A DNA stretch of 64,000 bases, from positions 60,202,001-60,266,000 of the forward strand of contig OX597825.1 in NCBI GenBank assembly GCA_951406725.2, written 5' to 3'. The DNA comes from Octopus vulgaris. Its lineage: Eukaryota. A model generated the notes under the pieces. The model did not search any database. It was not told where the DNA came from and saw only the letters and a program-made list of their open reading frames with translations. The translations under genes and the position numbers were made by a program. This document shows, piece by piece, positions 26,278-62,975 of the stretch; position 1 is the first letter of the stretch; each line of letters starts with the position of its first letter.

Positions 26278-26885
26278 AAGGTGGCGAGCTGGCAGAAACG
26301 TTAGCACGCCGGGCGAAATGCATAGCCGTATTTCGTCTGCCGTTACGTTCTGAGTTCAAATTCCGTCGAAGTCGACTTTGCCATTCATCCTTTTGAGGTC
26401 GATAAATTAAGTACCAGTTACGCACTGGTGTCGATGTAATCGACTTACTCCGTTTGTCTGTCCTTGTTTGTCCTCTCTGTGTTTAGCCCCTTGTGAGTAG
26501 AAAAGAAATAGGTATTTCGTCTGCCGTTACATTCTGAGTTCAAATTCCGCCGAGGTCGACTTTGCCATTCATCCTTTCGGGGTCGATTAAATAAGTACCA
26601 GTTACGCGCTGAAGTCGATATAATCGACTTAATCTGTTGTCTGTCCTTGTTTGTCCTCTCTGTGTTTAGCCCCTTGTGGGTAGTAAAGAAATAGGTATTT
26701 TGTCTACCATTACGTTCTGAGTTCAAATTCCGCCGAGGTCGACTTTGCCATTCATCCTTTCGGGGTCGATTAAATAAGTACTAAGTACGCACTGGGGTCG
26801 ATATAATCGACTTAGTCCGTTTGTCTGCCCTTGTTTGTCCCCTCAGTGTGTAGCCCTTTGTGGGCAGCAGTAAAGAAATAAGAAA
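26278..26885 (+). mobile_element. SINE family A copy with internally triplicated ~183-bp body
   Basis: gtatttcgtctgccgttacgttctgagttcaaattcc..tagcccc..aaagaaata repeated at ~26328, ~26512 and ~26694. Confidence 0.9.
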
Positions 26886-28480
26886 CAAGAGGAATAAAAA
26901 TAGTAATGATTATGAAAGCAATGCTACCACAACGATAAGAGTTACTACACCACCTTATCTTGTCCTTCCTACTTTTCCTTCTATCACAATGACTATCAAA
27001 ACTATTGTTGGTACTTTTGTTATCTACTTTTCACATAGAACGACTTCCGTCCCTACCATCGCCTTAAATAAATCAATGTCAGCGTTCCATTATGTATATG
27101 TTCCTATGTTTTTATTTTTTTTGCGTGACATCAATCTCTCCCCTACTTAAATATAAACGTGCCGGTATAGGGATATTGGGACCTTGCACATGAAAAGAAG
27201 TTAAAGGAACTGACAAATAAATCTAACTATCACCGGAAATTAACTTTCTCTTAGAAACTATGAAATAATCACGTTTATCAATATCACTTCTCTTCCGGGA
27301 AGCATTCATTGTTGTTGTTTTTATATTCTTATTCATATATTCTTATATTCTTATATTCTTACAGTTTTTGTGAATCTTTATTTTCATTATTCGCCTGTCA
27401 TTAATACTATTTATCTATTTCTTTTTATGTCGTGTGTTGCTATTCAGCAGAAATGGTAGACGGCTTCCTAATTTGTTTACAGTTTCAGATGTATTCCTTC
27501 TCAGTACGGCGTTCATACTCTACCGGCCCAGGTAAGTATATGTGGAAATGAACTTTCTTTTAATTCGAAACCGAAATGTACAATTACTCAGGTTTCTCTT
27601 CGGGAATCGACCATATAGGTCTCTGTACCACAAAATTCGAAACTATATACTTAGTGAACATACTTTGGCACCACACTATTGACAGTATGGAATATTTTCC
27701 TTTTCATTTATTACCAATATTGTAGGCTATACATTCAAACTTTTACTCATCTACACGCGCACACGCACACACACACATACACACACACACACCCACACAC
27801 ACACACACACATAATACAGAATTCACTCTCTGTATGTTTGCATACATATATGCATACACACACACACACAAACGTTCACAAGGAAATAGCCGTGAACGAC
27901 TTTGGAGATTCAGCTATCGCTTCGACGTCAAACTGTAGTTTTTTGCAAGGTTGTGTGTTCGTTTGATAGGTGGAGTAGTTTGATTGTTCGTTACGTGTGT
28001 TGCATGTATTATTCTTTTCTTTTTCATTTGTAGCAGAATAGGTAAATCCAGTGTATTTCTACGTCTCTGTGTATTTCTACGTCTCATATTTTTTATATGT
28101 ATATTATAGCCCTGTGACTCCTTAAACAATAATCTGATATCAATATCTTTCCTATATTTTCCAGGTCAGCGATATTTTTGGGTTAGACGTAACCTCATCT
28201 TTACCGTACCTTTTCGATTTCTAACAAGAGAAATCCATTTCTGTTTCAAATACGATTCTAATTTGCCAAACAACACTTTTTTATTTTCTTCCCAACGAGA
28301 GGACTGAAGCAATACGCAGTTGTTTGTGCTTGAATATCTTGGCTGATGTTATTTCTTTATCCCTTGATTAGTTTTCATAATGCGGATAAATGATTACAAT
28401 TGCAGCGTGGGAGGTGTTTATAAGCCATTTAAGAAACACACAGAAGCCGTTCGATTCACTTCAACATTTAAGTTTAATTT

Positions 28481-28524
28481 GTCAAAATATTTTCGTCGCT
28501 AAAATCCGCGACCTGCTCACTGAC
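28481..28524 (-). ncRNA. Hammerhead-like motif, G3-C8 variant
   Basis: gtca-GTGAGCA-G-GTCGC ggatttta GCGAC-GAAA-ATAT-TT-tgac. Confidence 0.6.
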
Positions 28525-29109
28525 TAAAATCCGTGCTGCATGATTAAAACCGTCCTAACCGTGTTCGTCGGATAGAAGGAACCATAACTGTGTTTCCCAC
28601 TGTACTATGTTCTGGGACGCTGAAGTACGATGGAAAAGAGATTTGCTTCCTATTCCTAACATGAAGTGTATCCACATTAAAAATCCTCTTTGACTTGTCA
28701 TACTGATAAATCATATTGGTAGTAGGCAACTGACTGATAATGATTTCGAATCAAAACACAAGAACAGATACCTCGTCTATATATGTATACATTATGTAAG
28801 TGTATAAGTAGAGAATATCGAAACCAGTAATGATTATAAAATTAATGATTAAAGAAATTATAAATTATTATCAACAAGGGACCTCCGTTAAGATCGCATG
28901 TAACGAAATACTTTATCTTATAACATATACGACAGTAAGATATAAAATGTCTCAGAAAATACAAGCAAGACATAAATTAAATATACGACAGAATACTATA
29001 TCAATTGAATACTTACAAGACTTAAGAAAAAAATAGTCCTCTAGAGTGGATTCTGTCGATTAAGTTCCTAGGCATACTACTAGCTTTCTAAAGGGTAAAA
29101 ATAAAAGAT

Positions 29110-29211: not shown

Positions 29212-29250
<39 letters not shown>

Positions 29251-29255
<5 letters not shown>

Positions 29256-30980
29256 GTAAAAAGTGAAAAAACTACAGAAGGCTTGTTTTAAAAGATTAAA
29301 AAAATATATATATTTGGGTCATTATGTCAGAAGAATGTTATAAATTTTTTTCATACAGTGACATAGTTTTTGAAGAAATTACCGGTTTGGTGTTAACTTC
29401 TCAAATTTCTCAAAACATTGTGTTATGACTTCGTTATGAAGTTTAAAGAAAGAGTTCCAGGTAAGGGGAGGTAATAAGTGATTTCTTCCGGTGTAAGGGA
29501 GATAATGGGGTGAGTTTCTCTATAAGAATGTAAGAGTGGTTAAGTTTGGGCTTATATTTTTCAATGAAGAATGTTTCCTTGTTTAGTCTAATTTGTGTTG
29601 GTGTTCCAATAGCACATTGATAAAATGGAAAGATTAAAATTGTGGTAGTAGTTGCTTTGCGCATTTCTCAATATGCTCATTAAAGGGTATCATTCTGTAT
29701 TCTGGGAATGCAATCTGTTGTCGATGCAGTGTGCATCTACGTCTGAGTGATAGTCCCGCGGATCCCACGTAGTTTTGGTGGCAGCCCGAGCATCTTATGA
29801 CATAAATTATGTTTTCAGAGGCACAAGTAAAATTAGATTTGATCTTGAATTTTTGTCCCTCTTTGAAGAGGAATTCTGATCCTTCTAGAAGGTTTGGGCA
29901 TGTTGCACAGTTTGGTCTACCACATTTTTTAACTTTTGCATCCGTAATTTCAGAAAGCAATTTTGCCTTTGTGAGAATCTTTTTAAGTGATTTAGGTTGT
30001 TTGTAGCTTTTAATGATTTTATGTATGTTTAGAATTTCCTTTAATTTGGGGTCCTTATGAAGTATTGGTAAATTCTGGGTGATGATGGTGAAGGCTTCTT
30101 TGTTTCTGGGGTTGTATGTGGATATGTAAGGCAGTATTTTCGGGGACGGTGTGTTGTTGTGTTGAACTTTTCTCAAAGTTTCTATGTCGATTTCTGTTGC
30201 ACGTCTGATCCCATCCTCTATGAGTTGAGCTGGGTAGTGTCTGTCAATTAGGGTGTTTTTGAGTTCTTGTAGTCTAAAGTTCCTGGTATTTTGTTCTGAC
30301 ACTATTGTGCATATCCTTCTTGCAAGGTTGAAAGGTATGTTTGTTTTAGTGTGTCTTGGGTGGCATAAATCAAAAAGTAGGTATTGTTTGGCGTCTGTGG
30401 CTTTGTAAAAAATGTCTGTTTCTATTTTAAGGTTCATTTTTTTAATTAGTATATCTAAGAATGGAAGCTCCTTTTGGTTGTATTCCATTGTGAACTGTAT
30501 ATTTGGGTTGATGCTGTTTTAGGAATTTATCTGGGTTTTCATTCCAGAGTATAAAACAATCGCCCTGGAATCGTTTCCAATTCTCTTTTATGTATTGAGA
30601 GAGGGGGTTTCCAAAGGTTGATAAAGATTCCTGGTAAATAATTATTTCCAGGTAGCCCATTGTTAGGTTCGCAATGACTGGTGCTGCCCTTGTACCATAG
30701 CAATTCCGGATTTTTGACGGTAAAATGTATTGTCAAACATGAAGTGGTTATTATGTAGGATGAATTCAACCGATTTAGTAATGAATTCTTTACTGATCCT
30801 TTTTGGTATTTCTGCCGGAAATTGGTCCAGCCAGAACTGTATTGCCTCTAGTCCATAATTATGAGGTATACTGGTATATAAATTAACTACATCAAATGAA
30901 ACCATGATTGTTTCTTCCTTGGCTTTTTTTGGAAGGTGGTTTAACATATCCAAGTCATCTCTGATATGGCTATCGATATG
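29251..30980 (-). mobile_element. PLE C (Neptune-like), 5'-truncated and frameshifted
   Basis: VSFDVVNLYTSIPH, QKSGIAM, WKRFQGDCFILW (degenerate DD motif), ELPFLDILI, CGRPNCATC, IIYVIRCSGCHQNYVG; ends in (TA)n. Confidence 0.9.
29374..29410 (-). ncRNA. Minimal hammerhead-like motif (U3-A8, G12C in this copy)
   Basis: agaaat-TTGAGAA-gt taac ac-CAAA-CCGG-TA-atttct in the 3'UTR of PLE C. Confidence 0.55.
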
Positions 30981-30999
30981 TTTAAGGAAGGGTTTTAGG

Positions 31000-31076
31000 G
31001 ACTACTGTAGCGTCGGGTGAGCTTAAACTCTTTGAGACGATTTGGTAGAGGGAAAGTGAAAGAAACCCATCGCATA

Positions 31077-33981: not shown

Positions 33982-35105
33982 TTTTTAGACAAAATAATGG
34001 AAACACCTTAAAATGTCAAACAAGATTACTTTGATATGGGGTAGGACCTACTTTGGCAATAATTACTGTTTGAATTTCACGAGGTATGGACTCGTACAAA
34101 GTTTGAATTGTTTCCAAAGGAACTTTTGTCCATTCTTTATCTTAAAAAGTCTCCAGTTCTTGTAGTGATGAAAGTGGAGGAAATTGTTGTTTTTAATACG
34201 CCATAAATGTTCAATAATGTTCAGATCTGAGGACTGTGGTGACCAGATATAATGTTAAACTTCACTAGAATGTTCCTGGTGCCATTCAGTAGTAACTTTA
34301 GCTGTGTAAATTGGTGCATTATCATCCTGAAAGATTGTGTTTCCTTCCGGAATCATTTCCGCAAACATAGGATGAATTTGATGAGATAAAATGCTTAAAT
34401 AGTGTTTACTATTAATTCTGCCATGAAGGGACATCATTGGGCCGACGGATTTCCAAGATATAGCCCCCCACCAGATCATCACAGATCCTCCTCTATGTTT
34501 AACACTTGGATGAAGGCAGTTTGGGTCAAATGATTCCTTTGGCTGTCTCCACATGTATACTCCGCCGGTGGTCGGAAATAAGGTAAAGGATGACTCGTCC
34601 GAGAAAATAACATTCTCCCAATTCTCTAGGGACCAATTCTGCAGGGTTTTACTCCGCTCGAAACGCTTTGTAACATTTGTTTTTGAAAGTAGTTGTTTTC
34701 TGATTGCAGTCCTCCCGTGAAATCCGGCTTTGTGCAGCTCCCCGCGAAGAGTCTTTATGGAAACTCAGTTCTCTAGGTGGTCTGCAGTAAGTTTTTCCCT
34801 GTTTCTCAAAGGCTGTCATCACCTTCGAGACAGTACGTCTTGATACATCAAACATTTCGGCTGTTTTCGTTACGCTAGTGCCTGCTATACGAGCACCAAG
34901 AATTTGAGTTCTTTGAAAGCCCGATAGATCTGTCATTTTATTGAATTTTAATTGTCTTTTTCTGAGGATATCTGAAAAGAAACAACAATTTTCAAAACCA
35001 TATTAAGCAACATGAATAATAAATCAAAAAACATAAAAATGAACAAGTTTTCAACGGTTTTTATATATATTTCAAAATTATGATGCTATGATGCTAGGTT
35101 TTTCC
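33979..35105 (-). mobile_element. Tc1-family DNA transposon relic (DD34E-type transposase pseudogene)
   Basis: TA|CAGT..aaaataatggaaacacct terminus; MTDLSGFQRTQILGAR..SRRTVSK HTH; FSDESSF, VKHRGGSVMIW, FQDDNAP, SPQSSDLNIIEHLW; partial matching TIR aggtttttcc at ~35096. Confidence 0.88.
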
Positions 35106-41930: not shown

Positions 41931-42142
41931 GCGAGCTGGCAGAAACGTTAGCTCGCCGGGCGAAATGTGTAGCCGTATTTCGTCTGCCGCAACGTTCTCG
42001 GTTCAAATTCCGCCGAGGTCGACTTTGCCTTTCATCCTTTCGGGATCGATAAATTAAGTAACAGTTACGCACTGGAGTCAATGTAATCGACTTAATCCGT
42101 TTGTCCCTTCTGTGTTTAGCCCCTTGTGGGTTGTAAAGAAAT
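41931..42142 (+). mobile_element. SINE family A copy
   Basis: gcgagctggcagaaacgttagc..gttcaaattccgccgaggtcgactttgcctttcatcctttcggg. Confidence 0.85.
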
Positions 42143-43110
42143 ATATATATATACGTGACGTAATGAAGAATCCATCTTCAAACCGAAAGTTTGCCTTAAA
42201 TAATTACAGAATTCAGTTTGTGGTGTGTTACATGGGTGACATATATCGTTTCCCAATGAGTGTAGCGTCGGAGTATGAGAAGATTGGTTTTGCATTTTCT
42301 ATGTTAGGCTACATACATATTTTATATCACGCAGTGTTTTGTAGTGTTACAATCTGTATGTAACAACGATCTTAAACTCTTGGGTCTTCGGTTACGTAAT
42401 ACAATAGTCTTTCTGTTTTTCTCAATGTACATTTCTGTTGTTTAAAACTTACCTAAATTAGCTGTCTTATTGTAATCAAGTTCAAGCCTGTACGTTATTG
42501 GCTGCTCAGCATATATCTAAATATTTTGAATTTCGTCTTATTTTAATAATCTGCCAAGTTTGGTAAATTTTCAAGCACCATACTTTCCGGCACACATGTC
42601 GACGTAATACATAGTGTAAACATATAGTTTAAAATTTTCAATATCCTCCTGTATTTCGCTTGTAATTTCTCATCTTCCAAAACTGTTTCCTTCTATAGAT
42701 CGACCGACAACTTTTGGCTGATAATTTTGATCTAAAAGCGTCACCTTGTATGCCGAAAAATACAATATCTTTCAGATCCACTAAAGTTACTTTGACATAG
42801 TCTTTTACTTGGTTTACGCCGCTGTTGGTTCATATCAGTATCATCTTTTGTCTTTCTGACTTTCTGAATATTCTGACTGAAGTAAAGGATTTTATGGCAT
42901 TTTTATTATCTGGACTCCTTAGATCACTTATCTCCCAATCTGTTCTAAGGAAACTGTAATTTACGACTAGGATGTGTAGCGTATATGTACGTATGCATGT
43001 ATGTATTACGTATGTGTGTATGCATTTATGTATTACTCTCTCTATCCTTTCTGTACACACACACACACATAAACACAAACACACACACACAAACTTATAT
43101 GTACACCTTA

Positions 43111-43479: not shown

Positions 43480-43935
43480 AATCCTATCTACAGAAGGCAC
43501 AAGACCTCAAATTTTGGGGGAGGGGGTCTAGTCAATTACATAGACCATTCAGTATTTCGCTGGTAATTAATTTATCGACCCTGAAAGGATGAAAGGCAAA
43601 GTCGACCTCGGCGGAATTTGAACTCACAACGTAAGACGGACGAAATGACACTAAGCATTTTGCCCGAAGTGCTAACGATTCTGCCAGCTCGCTGCCTTAA
43701 ACAACATTAATAAGAATCCTTACTACTATAAGCACAAATACTGAAATGTTTTATGGGGAGGAGGATTAGTCGATTGCATCGACCCCACGCCTCAGTTGGT
43801 ACTTATTTCATCGACTCCGGGAGGGTGAAAGGCAAAATCGATCGCGGCGGAACTTTAACTCAGAACGTAGCGACGAGCGAAATACTGCTAAGCGTTTCGT
43901 TCAGCGTACTTACTTCTGCCAGCTTATTGCCTTAT
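43480..43935 (-). mobile_element. Two tandem SINE family A copies
   Basis: Each ends in ctgccagct..gcctta (reverse complement of the head). Confidence 0.8.
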
Positions 43936-44450
43936 CCAGTATTAATAATAATAGAATCTTCACCATACGTGTAATATTCCTTTCTGAAACATACCTTTTA
44001 CGCACATCTTAAACCGGACTGCAGTTGCATGCAAATGCTGTGCCAAGTCAATCAACCATCCTTGGTCTATGAATGGGCTGAAGTTGCACGTTTCAGATAT
44101 GCAATAAAAACATTGCTACAGATGATACAAGAATTTTCCAGAGAAAAGCTATAAGAAATACGGATTATATGGAGACAGGGTGAAGTACTGTGATGATTCA
44201 CATACAGGGGTCCGTGAATCTCTTGGAGGAAAAAGCTGAATGAAATTTATAGTAATTTCCATTTATTTAAGAAAATGACAATGTAGCATTATTACTACGA
44301 AAATAGAAGGTAGACTATCGGATACCCTAAGTACATAGGAAACTCGATATTATTTTTCCATGTCAAAATGTATTTATGTATCACTCTCTCTATTCTTTCT
44401 GTACACACACACACAAACTCCAACACACACAAAAAATTATATGTACATCT

Positions 44451-47838: not shown

Positions 47839-47896
<58 letters not shown>

Positions 47897-47901
<5 letters not shown>

Positions 47902-48489
47902 ATAAGGCTTCCAAATATGGAAGCGTAGTGCTAGAAACACAAAAAGGGATAAATTCATGAAAGGATTGAAAATTAAAAACATTTATCTTCTCAGCTATAT
48001 CCCAGACCGAACGCTTTCTACCTATTTTTAGCAAACACACAGAATATATTTGCCAGGCCAGGTTCTTCAGTGGGAAGCCTTCGTAATCCTAGATGCACAG
48101 ACTGTTAGAAGCACATGTAGATCTAACGGTTTGTATATTCTAACTTTTCAAACCTTTGCGCAGACGCAAATCATACCCGGCGTACAGAGAGAATGCCGGT
48201 AAAAAAATTTACGAACAAATTCATCAATCAAATAGGGTAATAAAATAAATTATTATTACCAGTGACCTAGCACAAAAGACGAGTTAGTCATTAGACTATA
48301 TATTTTTCGTATAGAAATATAATAAAAGGCTTCCAAATAAGGAAGCGTAGTGCTAGAAACACAAAAAGGGATACATTCAGGAAAGGATTGAAAATTAAAA
48401 ACATTTACCTCCTCAGCTATATCCCAGACCGAACGGTTTCTACCTATTTTTAGCAAACACACAGAAGAACCTGGCCTGGCAAATATATT
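47897..48489 (-). mobile_element. Non-coding PLE-like terminal module in partial tandem
   Basis: Direct repeat 47897-48044 / 48320-48465 plus a 26-nt inverted segment 48043-48068 / 48463-48489; begins at a (TA)n tract. Confidence 0.75.
48000..48075 (-). ncRNA. Type I hammerhead ribozyme candidate with canonical core and long stem II
   Basis: tccca-CTGAAGA-acct[ggcc tggcaaatatat tct gtgtgtttgcta aaaat]aggt-a-GAAA-gcg tt cgg-TC-tggga; GUC cleavage triplet. Confidence 0.7.
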
Positions 48490-53566: not shown

Positions 53567-55420
53567 TGAATAGACACCTGTCAGCGTGCGTTGGAGCGGT
53601 TCAACTTTTCCAGGCGCCACCGCCGCCTCAACATCTCCCCGCCCGAGCTCTCGGCTCTCCGTTCCCTCCAACGGCGCGCTGACATTATCATCAAACCGGC
53701 TGACAAAGGTGGAGCTGTTGTGGTGTGGGACGCGGACCTCTACAGGCCCGAGGCGCTCCGCCAACTCAATGACACCTCCTTCTACTCTCTTCTGTCCTCT
53801 AACCCCACGCGTAGCTACCAACAGACGGTATCCTCTATTGTCCACGACCTCATCTCGTCCTCCCGTCTCCCTCACACTGCATCCAACCTCATCGTGCGAA
53901 CCCCACGCACCCCACCATTTACTTCCTCCCCAAAATCCACAAACCCAACAACCCTGGCCGCCCCATCGTCTCCGCCTGTAACTACCCCACGGAGCTCATC
54001 TCAAAATACCTCGACCGTGTCCTTGCCCCCCTAGTGGCGTCTCTTCCCTCCAACATCCACGACACCAACCTTGCTCTCCGGCTTTTCAACTCTTTTTCCT
54101 TTCCTCCCGGCTCCTCCAAAATACATTTTACAATGGACATCCAGAGCCTCTATACCGTCATCTCTCACCACGAAGGACTGCGGGCACTTCAACACTTTCT
54201 CGACCTCCGCCCCAACCCCGAACCCGACACCTCCACACTCATTCGTCTGGCCGAACTTGTCCTTTCTCTTAACTGCTTCTCGTTCGCGGGCGAGTTCCAC
54301 CAACTGTCTCGGGAGTGGCCATGGGAACGCGAATGGGCCCCAACTATGCGAACCTGTTCGTTGGCTATGTTGAGGCCCAAATATTCTCTAGTTTCACTGG
54401 TCCCACTCCCGGACTATACGGTCGTTACATTGACGACATTATCGGTGCCACCTCACTCTCCCGTGAACATCTAGATTCCTTCCTCTCTTTCGTTCAATCC
54501 TTCCATCCTGCCCTGCACATCTCCTGCGCATCTCCAACACCTCTGTCTCCTTCCTCGACATTTCGGTCAGCATTCATCACTCCACTCTTACCACCTCCAT
54601 TCACTACAAACACACAGACACACACTCACACCTAAACTTCTCTTCCTCCCACCCCAAACACACCAAGCTTCCCATCCCCTATTCCCAATTTCTCCGTCTA
54701 CGTAGGCTCTGTAGTGACGACCATGACTTTGAGACTCAGTCTCAACTCATGGCTCGCCACTTCATCCTACGTGGATACCCCCTCACCACTATCCACACCG
54801 CCCTTGCCAGAGCACTTCCGTAGACCGTGCATCTGCTCTCTCCACGAACCCGCCCTTTAGTCTCCTGCCTCCCTTTTCCCCTCATTTACCACCCCACGAC
54901 CCTACCTCTCTAACGCACCATTCTTCGAGCTTTCCGGTATCTCCAGTCCGACCCGTCCACTTCACACCTCTTCCCTAACCGACCCCTCCCCTCCTTCAAA
55001 CGAGCCCATAACCTATGAGACCTCTTGGTCCACAGCTCCTTCCCTGACCCTACCTCCCAACCTGGCTCGTTCCCCTGCTCCCGCCCACGTTGCCGCACTT
55101 GCCCTTACCTCTCCAACACCACCCTCCTCACTGGCACCCATCATAGACCCTATCGCATCATCAACTCCTTCACCTGCACCTCCAGCAATATCATCTATTG
55201 CATCTCCTGCTCTCTCTGTCATTCCCTGTACATCGGACAAACTGGACGCCGCTCGGCTGACCGGTTCGCGGAAACCTTCGGGACATCCGCCTTGCCAACG
55301 ACATACCGGTCTCACGCCATTTCCGCTCCACTGGTCACTCCTTGCAACACATGTAAGTGTTCGGATTGTCCTTGCACAGAGGTCATCCAGATTCCCGTTT
55401 GCGCCGTGAACAGAAATTAA
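53567..55420 (+). mobile_element. PLE D (Neptune-like), C-rich, multiply frameshifted RT + GIY-YIG
   Basis: IIKPADKGGAVVVW, FTMDIQSLYT, AMGTRMGPNYANLF, YGRYIDD, CSRPRCRTC, IIYCISCSLCHSLYIGQTGR. Confidence 0.92.
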
Positions 55421-59681: not shown

Positions 59682-61430
59682 AGTTTCAGCTCACAAGCTG
59701 TGGCCATGCTGGGGTACCGCCATTTGGTGTTGCTACATGATTATACTTCACGAATGCTTTTTAGCAATTGCCATTTGGTGCATGAGAGAGTTCGATGCAG
59801 CTGCCCTCATCTGCACCTCCTGCCGTGAAGTTGGTTCATCTGGGACACCTGATAAGAAGAGATCCAGTTTTATTTTAAAGACATCTGCATCCACCCCATG
59901 CAGGTCTCTTAGAGGATATTGAAGAGCTGTGGGCCTCTGAAGTCCAGGCTGTCACAGTATCTTGCACTAAATCTTGATGGCAAATTTGGAATCCTTGGCA
60001 CTATGCAGTGGCGTCCAGTTCTGGCATTTGTGTAACTCTCGATGCCAAAGTTTGGGAAAAGTCCTTCTAGGATCTTCCAGATGTATATTATGGCATATCT
60101 TTCTCGCCTACGCTCTAAGGAATAGAGTCTCAAACTCTTGAGTCTTTCCCAATAGCTTATATGCTGCACAGAGGCTATCTTCTTCGTGTAGCGTCGTTGG
60201 TTCGCCTCAAGTTCTGTGATCAACTTGACACTGGATGGTGACCATAGCTGAGAGCAATAGTCAAAGTGGCTTAGGACAAGTGTCCTCCAGAGGACCATCA
60301 TGGTTTCCGGGTCTCTTGTTCTAAAGGTTCTAAGAATCAATCCGGTCAGCCGCCTACATTTCATTGCCAATTTAGCAACATGCACATGAAAGGTTGCATC
60401 ATCACTCATGTAAATACCCAGGTCTCGCAGTGATTGTGCCTCTGGGATTGCAGTCTCTCCAGGTCCAGTGTATTTATTGGGTATTGCATTTAGTTTTGCA
60501 TGCTGATAGCATAAAGCTTGAAACTTTTCAGCATTGAACTGCATGCTATTCTTTTCAGCCCATTTGTATATTTTGTCCAGCTCACATTGCAGGTGCTTAG
60601 TGTCTTCAGGGTCCTGTATTGCCTCTGAAACATTTGTATCATCTGCATAACTTGTGATCGTGTCTCTCTGCGTGGCTGAGGGCATGTCTGAGAGGGCCAT
60701 TATGAACAGTAGTGGTCCCAAAACAGTGCCTTGCGGAACACCACTCACTATTTGTGTGTTAATGGAAGTGGCCCCATTGGCTACTACCACCTGACTTCTA
60801 TCCTTCAGAAAGTCATGAATCCATTCTCCCAATTTTCCAACTATGCCAAGATGACGCAGTTTATGACATATCATTCCATGATCGACTTTATCAAAGGCCT
60901 TTTCAAAGTCGAGATATATCACTTCTACATTTGAGTGGTTGAGCAGTCGTTTCAGCACCCAGTCATAGTATTGTAGGAGCTGAGTTAAGCAGCTTCTTCC
61001 TGGTCGGAAACCATGTTGGGTGTCAGGCAGCAAGTCATTTTCTTCAAGGAAGGTGATTAGATTCCTTCTGACTATTCGTTCCATGACCTTGCTGATATGT
61101 GAGGTCAGAGAGATAGGTCTGTAGTTCTTGGCCTCAGCTCTGCTACCGCCTTTATGAATAGGGCATATTTTACCTTCCTTCAGTTTTCTTGGAAGTTTGC
61201 CAGTTGCAAGGAAGCTCTGAAAGAGGAACTGCAGTGGTCTTGCTAGGACTCTCTTACATACTTTTAGAAGGATCGCTGGGAATCCATCGGGGCCAGTAGC
61301 TGAGTTTGTTTTCACTTCATCAATAGCCTTTATTACATCGTCTTTCTTTATATTGATATAATCAATCATCGGTGCCTCTGATTTTATATCTGCAGTGGTA
61401 AAGAAGTCAGTTGGATTGCTGACTTGGTGA
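59682..61430 (-). mobile_element. 5'-truncated CR1/L2-group LINE
   Basis: RT ORF plus frameshifted C-terminus and 3' tail ggcggtaccccagcatggccacagcttgtgagctgaaact. Confidence 0.9.
59909..61369 (-). CDS. LINE ORF2 reverse transcriptase domain (486-aa open stretch)
   Basis: SATGPDG, NYRPISLTS, QHGFRPGRSCLTQL, YLDFEKAFDKVDH, GVPQGTVLGPLLF, YADDT, RDLGI. Confidence 0.92.
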   Translation of the reverse strand: MIDYINIKKDDVIKAIDEVKTNSATGPDGFPAILLKVCKRVLARPLQFLFQSFLATGKLPRKLKEGKICPIHKGGSRAEAKNYRPISLTSHISKVMERIVRRNLITFLEENDLLPDTQHGFRPGRSCLTQLLQYYDWVLKRLLNHSNVEVIYLDFEKAFDKVDHGMICHKLRHLGIVGKLGEWIHDFLKDRSQVVVANGATSINTQIVSGVPQGTVLGPLLFIMALSDMPSATQRDTITSYADDTNVSEAIQDPEDTKHLQCELDKIYKWAEKNSMQFNAEKFQALCYQHAKLNAIPNKYTGPGETAIPEAQSLRDLGIYMSDDATFHVHVAKLAMKCRRLTGLILRTFRTRDPETMMVLWRTLVLSHFDYCSQLWSPSSVKLITELEANQRRYTKKIASVQHISYWERLKSLRLYSLERRRERYAIIYIWKILEGLFPNFGIESYTNARTGRHCIVPRIPNLPSRFSARYCDSLDFRGPQLFNIL

Positions 61431-62758
61431 GAATTCTTTTAGAAGACGCACTATATTTGTAGGAGGCTAAAACCCACGGGTTGCTGCTTAACTGGTTACA
61501 AAATGAATTCTAGCACAAAAATAAAGTCAGCGTATCCTTTACGGTGACCCTCACACATTCTGTCGACCAGATATCATTTACTGGACTTTATTACCTCGTG
61601 GATACGAGAAAGAGACTATCCAAGAGTGCTTTAAATTAGAATCGAAGCCGAATCTCGGGCATTGCCGAGTAGGCGCCTTCATAGCCAGCTGTGAATATCG
61701 AGCAACAGTTTGACGTGGATCGTAAAGGGACGTAACTCAAACCATACGTTCTAACATTATAATGGCTTGTCATCTACGTTATCTTTGTTTTATTATTTGT
61801 TCGTAAGTAGGAAATTGAAAAGTATCTTACTATAGAAACTATAATACTTACAGTTACATATTTGTTTTTGTCCTTGTTTCAAGAACAAACCAGTATGTAC
61901 ATTAGAAATAGGTCTAAGTGATTGATTGCTTAATTCTATTAGATAATTAGTGATTATTTTTTTCAGGATCTCACAAAAAAAAAGAGAAGCAAAGTTAATT
62001 ACACATTAATTGCAAAGTTTGAACTCAGTCCGTCGGATCTAGCTAGATTCCATTTATGACATAAAACGGAAAATTATTGGCTTATTATAAAGCAGGAATT
62101 ATTGAATTATTATGCAGACATACTGATTTATTTTATTAACAATCTCTTCAAGTCTATTTGGGGAAATAACGAAATATAAATCTTAGATGACAGATGGTTA
62201 TCTATCGTTAAAGCAGTTTACAATAGATACAGCATTATTCATTATCGTCTCAAATTTCTGCAATCTTAAAGGTGAAACAATTTTTCAGCTGGCCTCTTAT
62301 CTATCACTGCTAGATTAGCGCTGTTTATCTTGATTCTATATAACTATTGGTAATACTGAGCTGATGTATTGTAGTAATTTGTTGGACTAAATGAAATTCG
62401 TAATGAACTTGTGAAAACAATTTACTGAACCATACAATTCAGCTAAAACGGATTCTGTGATTGTTTATGGGAAGGTGAACTCTTAGCCATTCCTCGCATT
62501 TACCATTCTGTCAAACAGATCGGTTACACCGCAGAGCTACAGCAGCAATGACACATTAACACCAAGCATTTCTTCGTTACTACAAGTCGTCACTTTCGTA
62601 CTGATTGTCTATAAATCTAACTCAAATGCGTATCGAAGACAATGGACGTATGGAAAGTAAGAACAATCCCAGTAGAGTATGTACGTAGAAAATAAGAGTA
62701 CAACAGTAAGCAATGAACAACGTTGTTGATTCAGTCAAACAATACTAAAGGAGTAAAT

Positions 62759-62975
62759 AAGGCTGCGAGCTGGAAGAAGCGTTGGCACGCCGGGTGAAAT
62801 GCTTAGCGGTGTTTCGTCTGTCTTGACGTTCTGAGTTCAAATTCCGACGAGATTTACTTTGCTTTCATACTTTCGGGGTCGATAAATTATGCACCAGTTG
62901 CGTACTGGGATCGAGCTAATCGACTGGCTCCCTTCCCCAAAATTTCGGGCCTCTTGCCTAGAGTAGAAAAGAATG
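62759..62975 (+). mobile_element. SINE family A copy
   Basis: aaggctgcgagctggaagaagcgttggcacgccggg..gagttcaaattcc.. Confidence 0.8.

Follow-up and report, generated by a model that had tools for sequence, protein, structure and literature searches.

A sequence on the minus strand of an Octopus vulgaris contig resembles a hammerhead ribozyme whose core carries G3-C8 in place of C3-G8. This raises the questions of what kind of sequence carries the motif and how it came to its present location. The window is the entire stretch analysed, 64,000 nucleotides of contig OX597825.1 (assembly GCA_951406725.2, positions 60,202,001 to 60,266,000), and all coordinates below refer to it. In the laboratory, G3-C8 has long served as the standard rescue mutant of the hammerhead core. 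The hammerheads of Penelope-like elements (PLEs) cut poorly in vitro, and the single PLE to have been reconstituted to date could insert without its ribozyme.

The hammerhead motif

The minus strand at 28524–28481 contains all invariant hammerhead core bases except for the 3-8 pair, which is swapped from C3-G8 to G3-C8. The core, stem II, the palindromic AAUAUU of stem III and the swap itself were each confirmed as the first-pass annotation had described them. Position 2.1 lies at 28521 and G3 at 28520, followed by U4, G5, A6, G7 (28516), C8 (28515) and A9 (28514). One additional G (28513) is placed between A9 and G10.1 (28512), the latter pairing with C11.1 (28495) to close stem II. G12–A15.1 occupy 28494–28491, the palindrome 28491–28486, U17 28485 and position 1.1 28484, such that the cleavage triplet is UUU. 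With U4, G5, A6, A9, G12, A13, A14 and the A15.1-U16.1 pair in place, the core is that of the PLE-type minimal type I hammerhead, and the four traits of that type (the extra base, G10.1-C11.1, a palindromic stem III and an NUH triplet) are all present. The 3-8 pair remains Watson-Crick as G3-C8, and the canonical CUGANGA box with its C3-G8 is absent.

Stem II comprises five Watson-Crick pairs around an 8-nt loop, with pair probabilities of 0.99–1.0. Stem I of this copy has four perfect pairs, a bulged A and three further pairs. The minimum free energy structure of the 55-nt motif folded alone contains stems I and II (z −2.42, with 5 of 200 shuffles equally stable) and also an off-pathway pair between G3 and U17. 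Folded in a 71-nt context, stem I has a probability of only ~ 0.1, and the stability of the entire 140-mer is unremarkable on the minus strand (z −0.84) and on the plus strand (z −0.62).

Chance rates were estimated on 2216 locally shuffled windows, using patterns that allowed any Watson-Crick 3-8 pair and that were defined only after the motif had been seen. The loosest pattern gave 312 matches, stems I and II of at least 4 bp gave 29, and stems as seen gave 9; with the palindrome added, a loose pattern gave 21 matches and the stems as seen gave 1. In the actual window the motif is matched under all five patterns, and one further match occurs under the loosest pattern alone. In 20,000 shuffles of the 143-mer the hammerhead pattern was matched 3 and 0 times. 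Rfam returned no hammerhead among its two local matches, even at E 10, nor among the 150 of 204 matches listed for the whole window. Scans with the hammerhead pattern yielded 13, 0 and 0 loci in viral contigs, one locus in metagenomes and 38 in prokaryote genomes, all of them chance matches; the G3-C8 type I fold occurs in none of these 52 loci, and none matches the module beyond the pattern. Searches of the module with blastn and nhmmer against the 64-kb window found no second copy. Comparison of its plus-strand translation with predicted proteins found no other copies and returned only two unrelated matches.

Boundaries and parts of the inserted element

The 7-bp direct repeat ATGATTA, present at 28390–28396 and 28540–28546, is read as a target-site duplication; a direct repeat of this length within 3 nt of two random positions has a frequency of 0.005. 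Because the duplication flanks it, the insert is defined as 28397–28539 (143 bp). The duplication is also readable as 9–10 bp with one mismatch, the left copy then extending to 28399. The element had initially been delimited by the inverted repeat tgcagcgtgg/ccgtgctgca, which proved to be wrong. The left arm of this 10-bp repeat (8 of 10 positions matching) starts 4 nt inside the left end and its right arm overlaps the right duplication by 1 nt; therefore, the arms are not the ends of the element. The features of the locus are as follows.

28390–28396, no strand: left copy of the target-site duplication, ATGATTA; family homology begins at 28396/28397
28397–28539, minus strand: inserted element of 143 bp without an open reading frame, one copy of a high-copy dispersed repeat (depth and duplication)
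28397–28478, minus strand: 3′ part behind the ribozyme, its end being the putative reverse transcription start (loose ends of other copies)
28478–28484, minus strand: 3′ strand of stem I, UGACAAA; predicted cut between 28485 and 28484
28485–28494, minus strand: 3′ half of the core, with GAAA, palindromic stem III AAUAUU (28491–28486) and U17 at 28485
28495–28512, minus strand: stem II, 5 bp with G10.1-C11.1, and an 8-nt loop unlike that of the family majority
28513–28520, minus strand: 5′ half of the core, G3 U G A N7 C8 A9 with the swapped 3-8 pair, and the extra G before stem II
28521–28528, minus strand: 5′ strand of stem I, 4 bp, bulged A and 3 bp (7 uninterrupted pairs in the family majority)
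28540–28546, no strand: right copy of the target-site duplication
28400–28457, plus strand: A-box-like (28400–28410, 2 mismatches) and B-box-like (28449–28457) motifs on the strand opposite to the ribozyme

The insert extends 55 nt before and 88 nt after the predicted cut site, and the distance from G10.1, at the start of stem II, to the left end of the insert is 116 nt. The target is AT-rich, both in the ATGATTA duplication and in the flank consensus of other copies.

An exact 10-bp direct repeat (28499–28508 and 28524–28533, 25 nt apart) relates loop 2 to a segment that overlaps stem I on its 5′ side. Both places differ in the family majority, and the repeat possibly records a template switch or conversion in a subfamily. 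A 68-codon open frame ending at the right duplication was rejected as a part of the element; it lies in low-depth DNA and has no credible Atlas match (best 0.86).

The repeat family in public sequencing runs

At least part of the 1181-bp stretch is contained in 10 of the 24 listed runs, under four organism labels. Copy number, ends and variants rest on four of these 24, in which contigs were matched at 80% likeness: X2 (organism A, DNA), X6 (organism B, DNA), X10 (organism D) and X11 (organism A, RNA by guess). The matched contigs number 2742, 5265, 2453 and 731, respectively, and their depth is concentrated on the module. The summed depth in X2 is 16.1 over the left flank and jumps at 28396 to ~ 10⁶; it is 0.85–1.04 million over the module (1.04 million at 28420–28459), 106,000 at 28500–28539, 1158 at 28540–28579 and 21 beyond. 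Summed depth is not a copy number, and the module-to-flank ratio of ~ 65,000 is thus an upper bound, which becomes ~ 2000 copies if divided by 31 for overlapping unitigs. A firmer floor is provided by the 143 contigs in X2 (121 + 22) that diverge from the window into other sequence just before 28396 or 28397. In an Octopus genome and its relatives the module is a dispersed repeat of very high abundance, with copies likely in the thousands. The sequence is thus not single-copy; a single copy would have spoken against the first-pass annotation. Long contigs in X6 span both junctions and therefore organism B has the same insertion. Depth in X11 is confined to the repeat and is zero in the flanks, which is uninformative on expression of this locus.

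The left ends of other copies fall into two classes among the loose-end groups listed (the best six per run, with 407 more beyond these). Contigs that end before 28396 (121, 153, 116 and 21 in the four runs) share the letters next to the edge, whereas those that end before 28397 (22 contigs, X2) or 28399 (17 contigs, X6) are only AT-rich there. The first class thus carries ~ 14–18 further shared letters resembling a tail, and the second runs directly into AT-rich flank.

Most copies diverge at 28500 from the one studied here, owing to a different loop 2. The majority letters behind 28500, given by 63, 71, 71 and 15 contigs with an agreement of 0.73–0.79, retain stem II, the extra G, G3 and C8 in all four runs, with A at N7, and form a stem I of 7 bp without the bulge of this copy; these letters are a majority line and not a per-position count. 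Loss of the core and stems across copies would have counted against the motif, and in the family majority GUGA-N-CA and GAAA are instead conserved, along with stems I and II, in each of the four runs. One X11 contig matches 28445–28524 with three differences and no gap, so the loop-2 version of this copy probably marks a subfamily.

No variant of at least 5% occurs at 28483–28499 among the rows listed (two more rows exist). The sole listed ribozyme variant is an A-to-G change at 28482 in stem I, at 5–14% of depth, which keeps the pairing as U-G; most contigs are clipped at 28500. At 28452, the C of the B-box-like motif is replaced by A in 41–53% of the family depth. Varying sites amount to 1 of the 21 covered ribozyme positions and 5 of the 82 positions elsewhere, and extra constraint on the core is therefore not demonstrable from these counts.

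The family is not wholly uniform, as small groups behind 28501 (4, 4 and 2 contigs) part from its sequence within or directly past the end of stem II, in the manner expected of truncated or snap-back copies. Five joints are listed in the four runs; three of them are opposite-strand joints (28538 in X10; 28442–28500 in X6 and X11), in which part of the module is fused, within one contig, to another part in inverted orientation. Inverted truncated copies are described for PLEs in the part of PMC8557442 available. None of the five joints listed is head-to-tail, most right-end contigs being clipped.

Penelope-like elements in the window

The window contains one long PLE open reading frame at 19966–23175, 1069 codons from stop to stop and without a Pfam match; its part 20317–23172 matches a predicted Octopus vulgaris protein with 99% identity across 83% of its length. 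A 1-kb inverted copy is arranged around it (19296–20349 versus 24052–23007, 94.9% identity), and the hammerhead core of the scanned pattern was not found in this region (19296–24052). Four further PLE remnants carry a Cys-rich linker before the GIY-YIG domain.

13684–14817, plus strand: PLE remnant
16081–16803, minus strand: PLE remnant
29634–31001, minus strand: PLE remnant, nearest to the module
53570–55420, plus strand: PLE remnant

By the description of the Cys-rich linker in the available part of PMC8557442 the remnants are Neptune-like, and two of them are 60% identical in protein. Neither the module sequence nor its hammerhead core pattern occurs in the remnants of the window, and no PLE frame in the 64-kb window is linked to the module copy at 28397–28539. 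The first-pass annotation had stated that the module has neither an adjacent open reading frame nor a (TA)n tract. The module itself indeed holds no reading frame, but a broken PLE frame (29634–31001) lies 1.1 kb upstream on the same strand and ends in its own (TA)n near 29250. This PLE was rejected as the parent of the module on account of that (TA)n end and of ~ 700 bp of unrelated DNA between the two, where depth is low (4–33 in X2 at 28580–29080).

Comparison with known ribozyme-bearing elements

The closest published motifs are the minimal hammerheads that sit in PLE pseudo-LTRs, as described in the accessible portion of PMC4209133 (Cervera and de la Pena 2014). These have a base between positions 9 and 10.1, G10.1-C11.1 and a mini stem III made of a palindromic 15.2-16.2/loop 3; they show low activity and require dimers. 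Most are solitary, likely from truncated PLEs, and dispersed copies run into the thousands. The octopus module shares the type I topology, the extra base, G10.1-C11.1, the palindromic mini stem III, the NUH site and the mostly solitary dispersed copies in the thousands. However, position 3 in the 56 motifs aligned there is C3 in 53, U3 in 3 and G3 in none, the extra base has the consensus H with G in only 1 of 56, cephalopods are absent from the alignment, and no PLE open reading frame is linked to this octopus copy. U17, present in the module, occurs in ~ 24 of the 56 by our own count. Co-adaptation of U17 to G3 was considered and is unsupported because U17 is also common in C3-G8 PLE motifs; in the part of PMC3884650 available, G3-C8 is stated to perform better with G17 than with C17 (data not shown there).

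The PLE named PAc, a Poseidon-type element of Anolis carolinensis, provides the closest parallel for the geometry of insertion (Frangieh et al. 2024, PMC11167929, as far as its available text goes). Its open reading frame begins at stem II, and reverse transcription starts 111–118 nt into that frame at either of two sites, which accounts for a tail that is present in some copies only. Its endonuclease has a preference for ATT, the main template is uncut RNA and the ribozyme needs the protein. The octopus copies likewise end ~ 115 nt behind the start of stem II (116 nt here, a match that rests on PAc as the one comparator), fall into two end classes, have a target containing ATT and would have been copied from uncut RNA. 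They differ from PAc in that no open reading frame starts at stem II and in an extension of ~ 14–18 nt compared with a PLE tail of 30–40 bp. The C3G/G8C double mutant partly restores PAc cleavage, and thus an engineered rescue state in PAc corresponds to the natural majority state of the octopus repeat.

Natural covariation at the 3-8 pair has precedents. U3-A8 is the only natural 3-8 covariant reported in the available part of PMC3088659 (Perreault et al. 2011), and it also occurs in Schistosoma Cercyon (PMC4209133, same portion as above). As in these covariants, the 3-8 pair of the octopus module is retained by a compensatory change; U3-A8 arises by transitions that keep the pyrimidine-purine order, whereas G3-C8 reverses it.

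Metazoan retrozymes are tandem repeats that give rise to circular RNAs of ~ 170–400 nt (PMC7229834 and bioRxiv 10.64898/2026.07.22.740005, each as represented by its available part). Non-LTR retrozymes and the module are both short, non-coding and AT-rich, carry a type I hammerhead and a duplication of more than 4 bp, and are thought to be moved by PLEs. The retrozyme unit of ~ 170–400 nt is highly self-paired, unlike the octopus unit of 143 bp (z −0.84), and retrozymes are defined by tandem units, whereas the octopus element is a monomer with no tandem joint among those listed.

Origin of the module

The module is one copy of an abundant octopus repeat that bears a minimal type I hammerhead motif with a G3-C8 core, and it was probably inserted by a PLE reverse transcriptase and endonuclease, either as a solo pseudo-LTR end piece or as a non-autonomous derivative. 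By analogy it would work like the ribozyme of a PLE pseudo-LTR, with membership in the pseudo-LTRs or the retrozymes as candidate assignments. Of the original suggestion of a retrozyme-like element or a solo pseudo-LTR, a mobile, non-coding, ribozyme-bearing element of PLE type is retained as the best reading, with the retrozyme-like element and the solo pseudo-LTR both as candidates; no head-to-tail joint is listed in the four runs. A non-LTR retrozyme monomer is unlikely; in this scenario dimeric hammerheads would release circles from tandem master arrays of a ~ 150-nt unit, a PLE reverse transcriptase would copy them back as dispersed monomers, and the apparent tail would be terminal redundancy left when copying overruns one full turn of the circle. 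It would account for an insert that spans the cut site and for a 6-mer of the shared extension that recurs in direct orientation at the right end; the duplication of more than 4 bp and the low GC content fit the description in the accessible part of PMC7229834, some families contain many solo monomers (bioRxiv 10.64898/2026.07.22.740005, available part), and the family is present in X11, which is labelled RNA by guess. However, besides the lack of a head-to-tail arrangement among the five joints listed, the right end of the unit is not recovered in the outer letters of the left loose ends, the window holds a single copy and the motif is of the minimal PLE type. A still less probable origin is a chance look-alike of a hammerhead in the founder of an unrelated repeat, passively copied and never functional. 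Several observations are consistent with such an accident: no Rfam hammerhead match was obtained, the patterns were chosen post hoc, scanning very many windows yields chance matches (0.004–0.013 per window for mid-strict patterns), a high copy number repeats one founding event and hence is not independent evidence, and compensatory change is not resolved among the covered variants. On the other hand, the traits beyond the pattern (extra base, G10.1-C11.1, palindrome) agree with PLE hammerheads, stem I is lengthened to 7 bp in the majority, and the differences between this copy and the majority fall at the free positions, loop 2 and N7.

Two further explanations assign the mobility of the module to its plus strand or to its inverted repeat. 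An origin as a tRNA-type Pol III SINE transcribed from the plus strand, with the hammerhead of the opposite strand as a passenger or an accident of the master copy, appears improbable. The A-box-like and perfect B-box-like motifs lie 38 nt apart, an arrangement with a frequency of 0.006 in shuffles, and the end repeat pairs 10 of 10 positions, two of them as G-U, on the plus strand only. SINEs moreover make up 11.6% of the O. vulgaris genome, and most of the recently active families are unclassified (PMC13282606, available part). Against this, the B-box substitution takes up roughly half of the family depth, neither ARAGORN nor Rfam identifies a tRNA, the T4 run at 28490 would end Pol III transcription before the last 46 nt, and the tRNA-like head, the poly(A) or simple-repeat tail and the freedom from internal T4 expected of a SINE are missing. 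The hammerhead pattern is also the rarer one by chance in the shuffled 143-mer, and it is more perfect in the family majority than in this copy. Least probable, to the point of being remote, is a miniature inverted-repeat DNA transposon with the 10-bp inverted repeat as its ends. CpG decay could explain both mismatches of the repeat, and the duplication can be read as 9–10 bp with one mismatch; but inverted repeats located exactly at the ends and adjoining the duplication are not what is found, since 4 nt separate the left arm from the 7-bp duplication and the right arm runs into it. In addition, the left ends with the best support among other copies lie at 28396, 28397 and 28399 rather than at 28401, and shared sequence continues past the left end in many copies.

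In the favoured reading, insertion by a PLE machinery, the template would be a Pol II transcript of the minus strand; Pol II is proposed because the three T4 runs on this strand of the element would stop Pol III. The PLE protein would bind the transcript and nick an AT-rich target containing ATT. Reverse transcription would then begin ~ 116 nt past the first base of stem II, with a choice between two sites some 14–18 nt apart that give copies with or without the tail, and would traverse the ribozyme as far as 28539. As the predicted cut site lies within the insert, the template would have been uncut or re-ligated. The ribozyme may cut weakly after U17, as a dimer formed through the AAUAUU palindrome or with the help of the PLE protein, and with G3-C8 the core pair would be preserved but activity lowered. 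With its bulged stem I and its other loop 2, this copy probably cuts less well than the majority form of the family. A fixed 5′ end is weakly hinted at by the joint at 28538 in X10 and by the fall in depth at 28540.

A more specific and rather doubtful version of PLE-driven insertion is that the family is a dedicated hammerhead-SINE, namely a non-autonomous Penelope parasite of ~ 145–160 bp with fixed ends, dispersed as monomers in tens of thousands in octopuses and carrying an active natural G3-C8 ribozyme. Such a family would place a self-cleaving site in many host transcripts, would bear a promoter of Pol III-like type on the strand opposite to the ribozyme, and would be invisible to CUGANGA-based searches and to Rfam.

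Significance of a natural G3-C8 hammerhead

PLE hammerheads, solitary copies and covariation of the 3-8 pair as U3-A8 are already known. That G3-C8 should predominate in an animal repeat of such abundance appears to be new as far as the literature was searched; no report of a natural G3-C8 hammerhead or of this octopus family was found in the open literature, which is what the search covered. In the accessible parts of the respective papers, 235 Rfam hammerheads are given for the giant squid (PMC6962438), the PLE share of the O. vulgaris genome is put at 6.83% (PMC13282606, supplement), and hammerheads or ribozymes are unmentioned in the O. vulgaris repeat annotation (PMC13282606). The present family may allow one of the octopus repeats listed as unclassified to be named. 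If the module cuts, it would represent a large ribozyme family overlooked by standard search patterns, and hammerhead counts built on the CUGANGA pattern are suggested to miss whole families. The thousands of copies in related species would constitute a natural mutation series that bears on selection of PLE hammerheads for cleavage.

Other features of the window

Another abundant dispersed repeat, of 170–230 bp and unrelated to the hammerhead module, occurs at 371–598, 7160–7358, 26278–26880, 41931–42143, 43487–43952 and 62759–62975, and is in partial tandem at 26328–26880. A direct repeat of 170 bp (47875–48044 and 48297–48466) has copies that are 92% identical and 422 bp apart. Fragments of other mobile elements include a LINE-type reverse transcriptase on the minus strand at 59909–61438 (RVT_1, E 4e-32) and a Tc1-type transposase on the minus strand at 34255–34764. 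On the plus strand, two micro-exon-like stretches of 8 nt (28034–28041) and 24 nt (28165–28188), without RNA cover in X11, were recognized by eye, each preceded by a pyrimidine tract plus AG and followed by GT.
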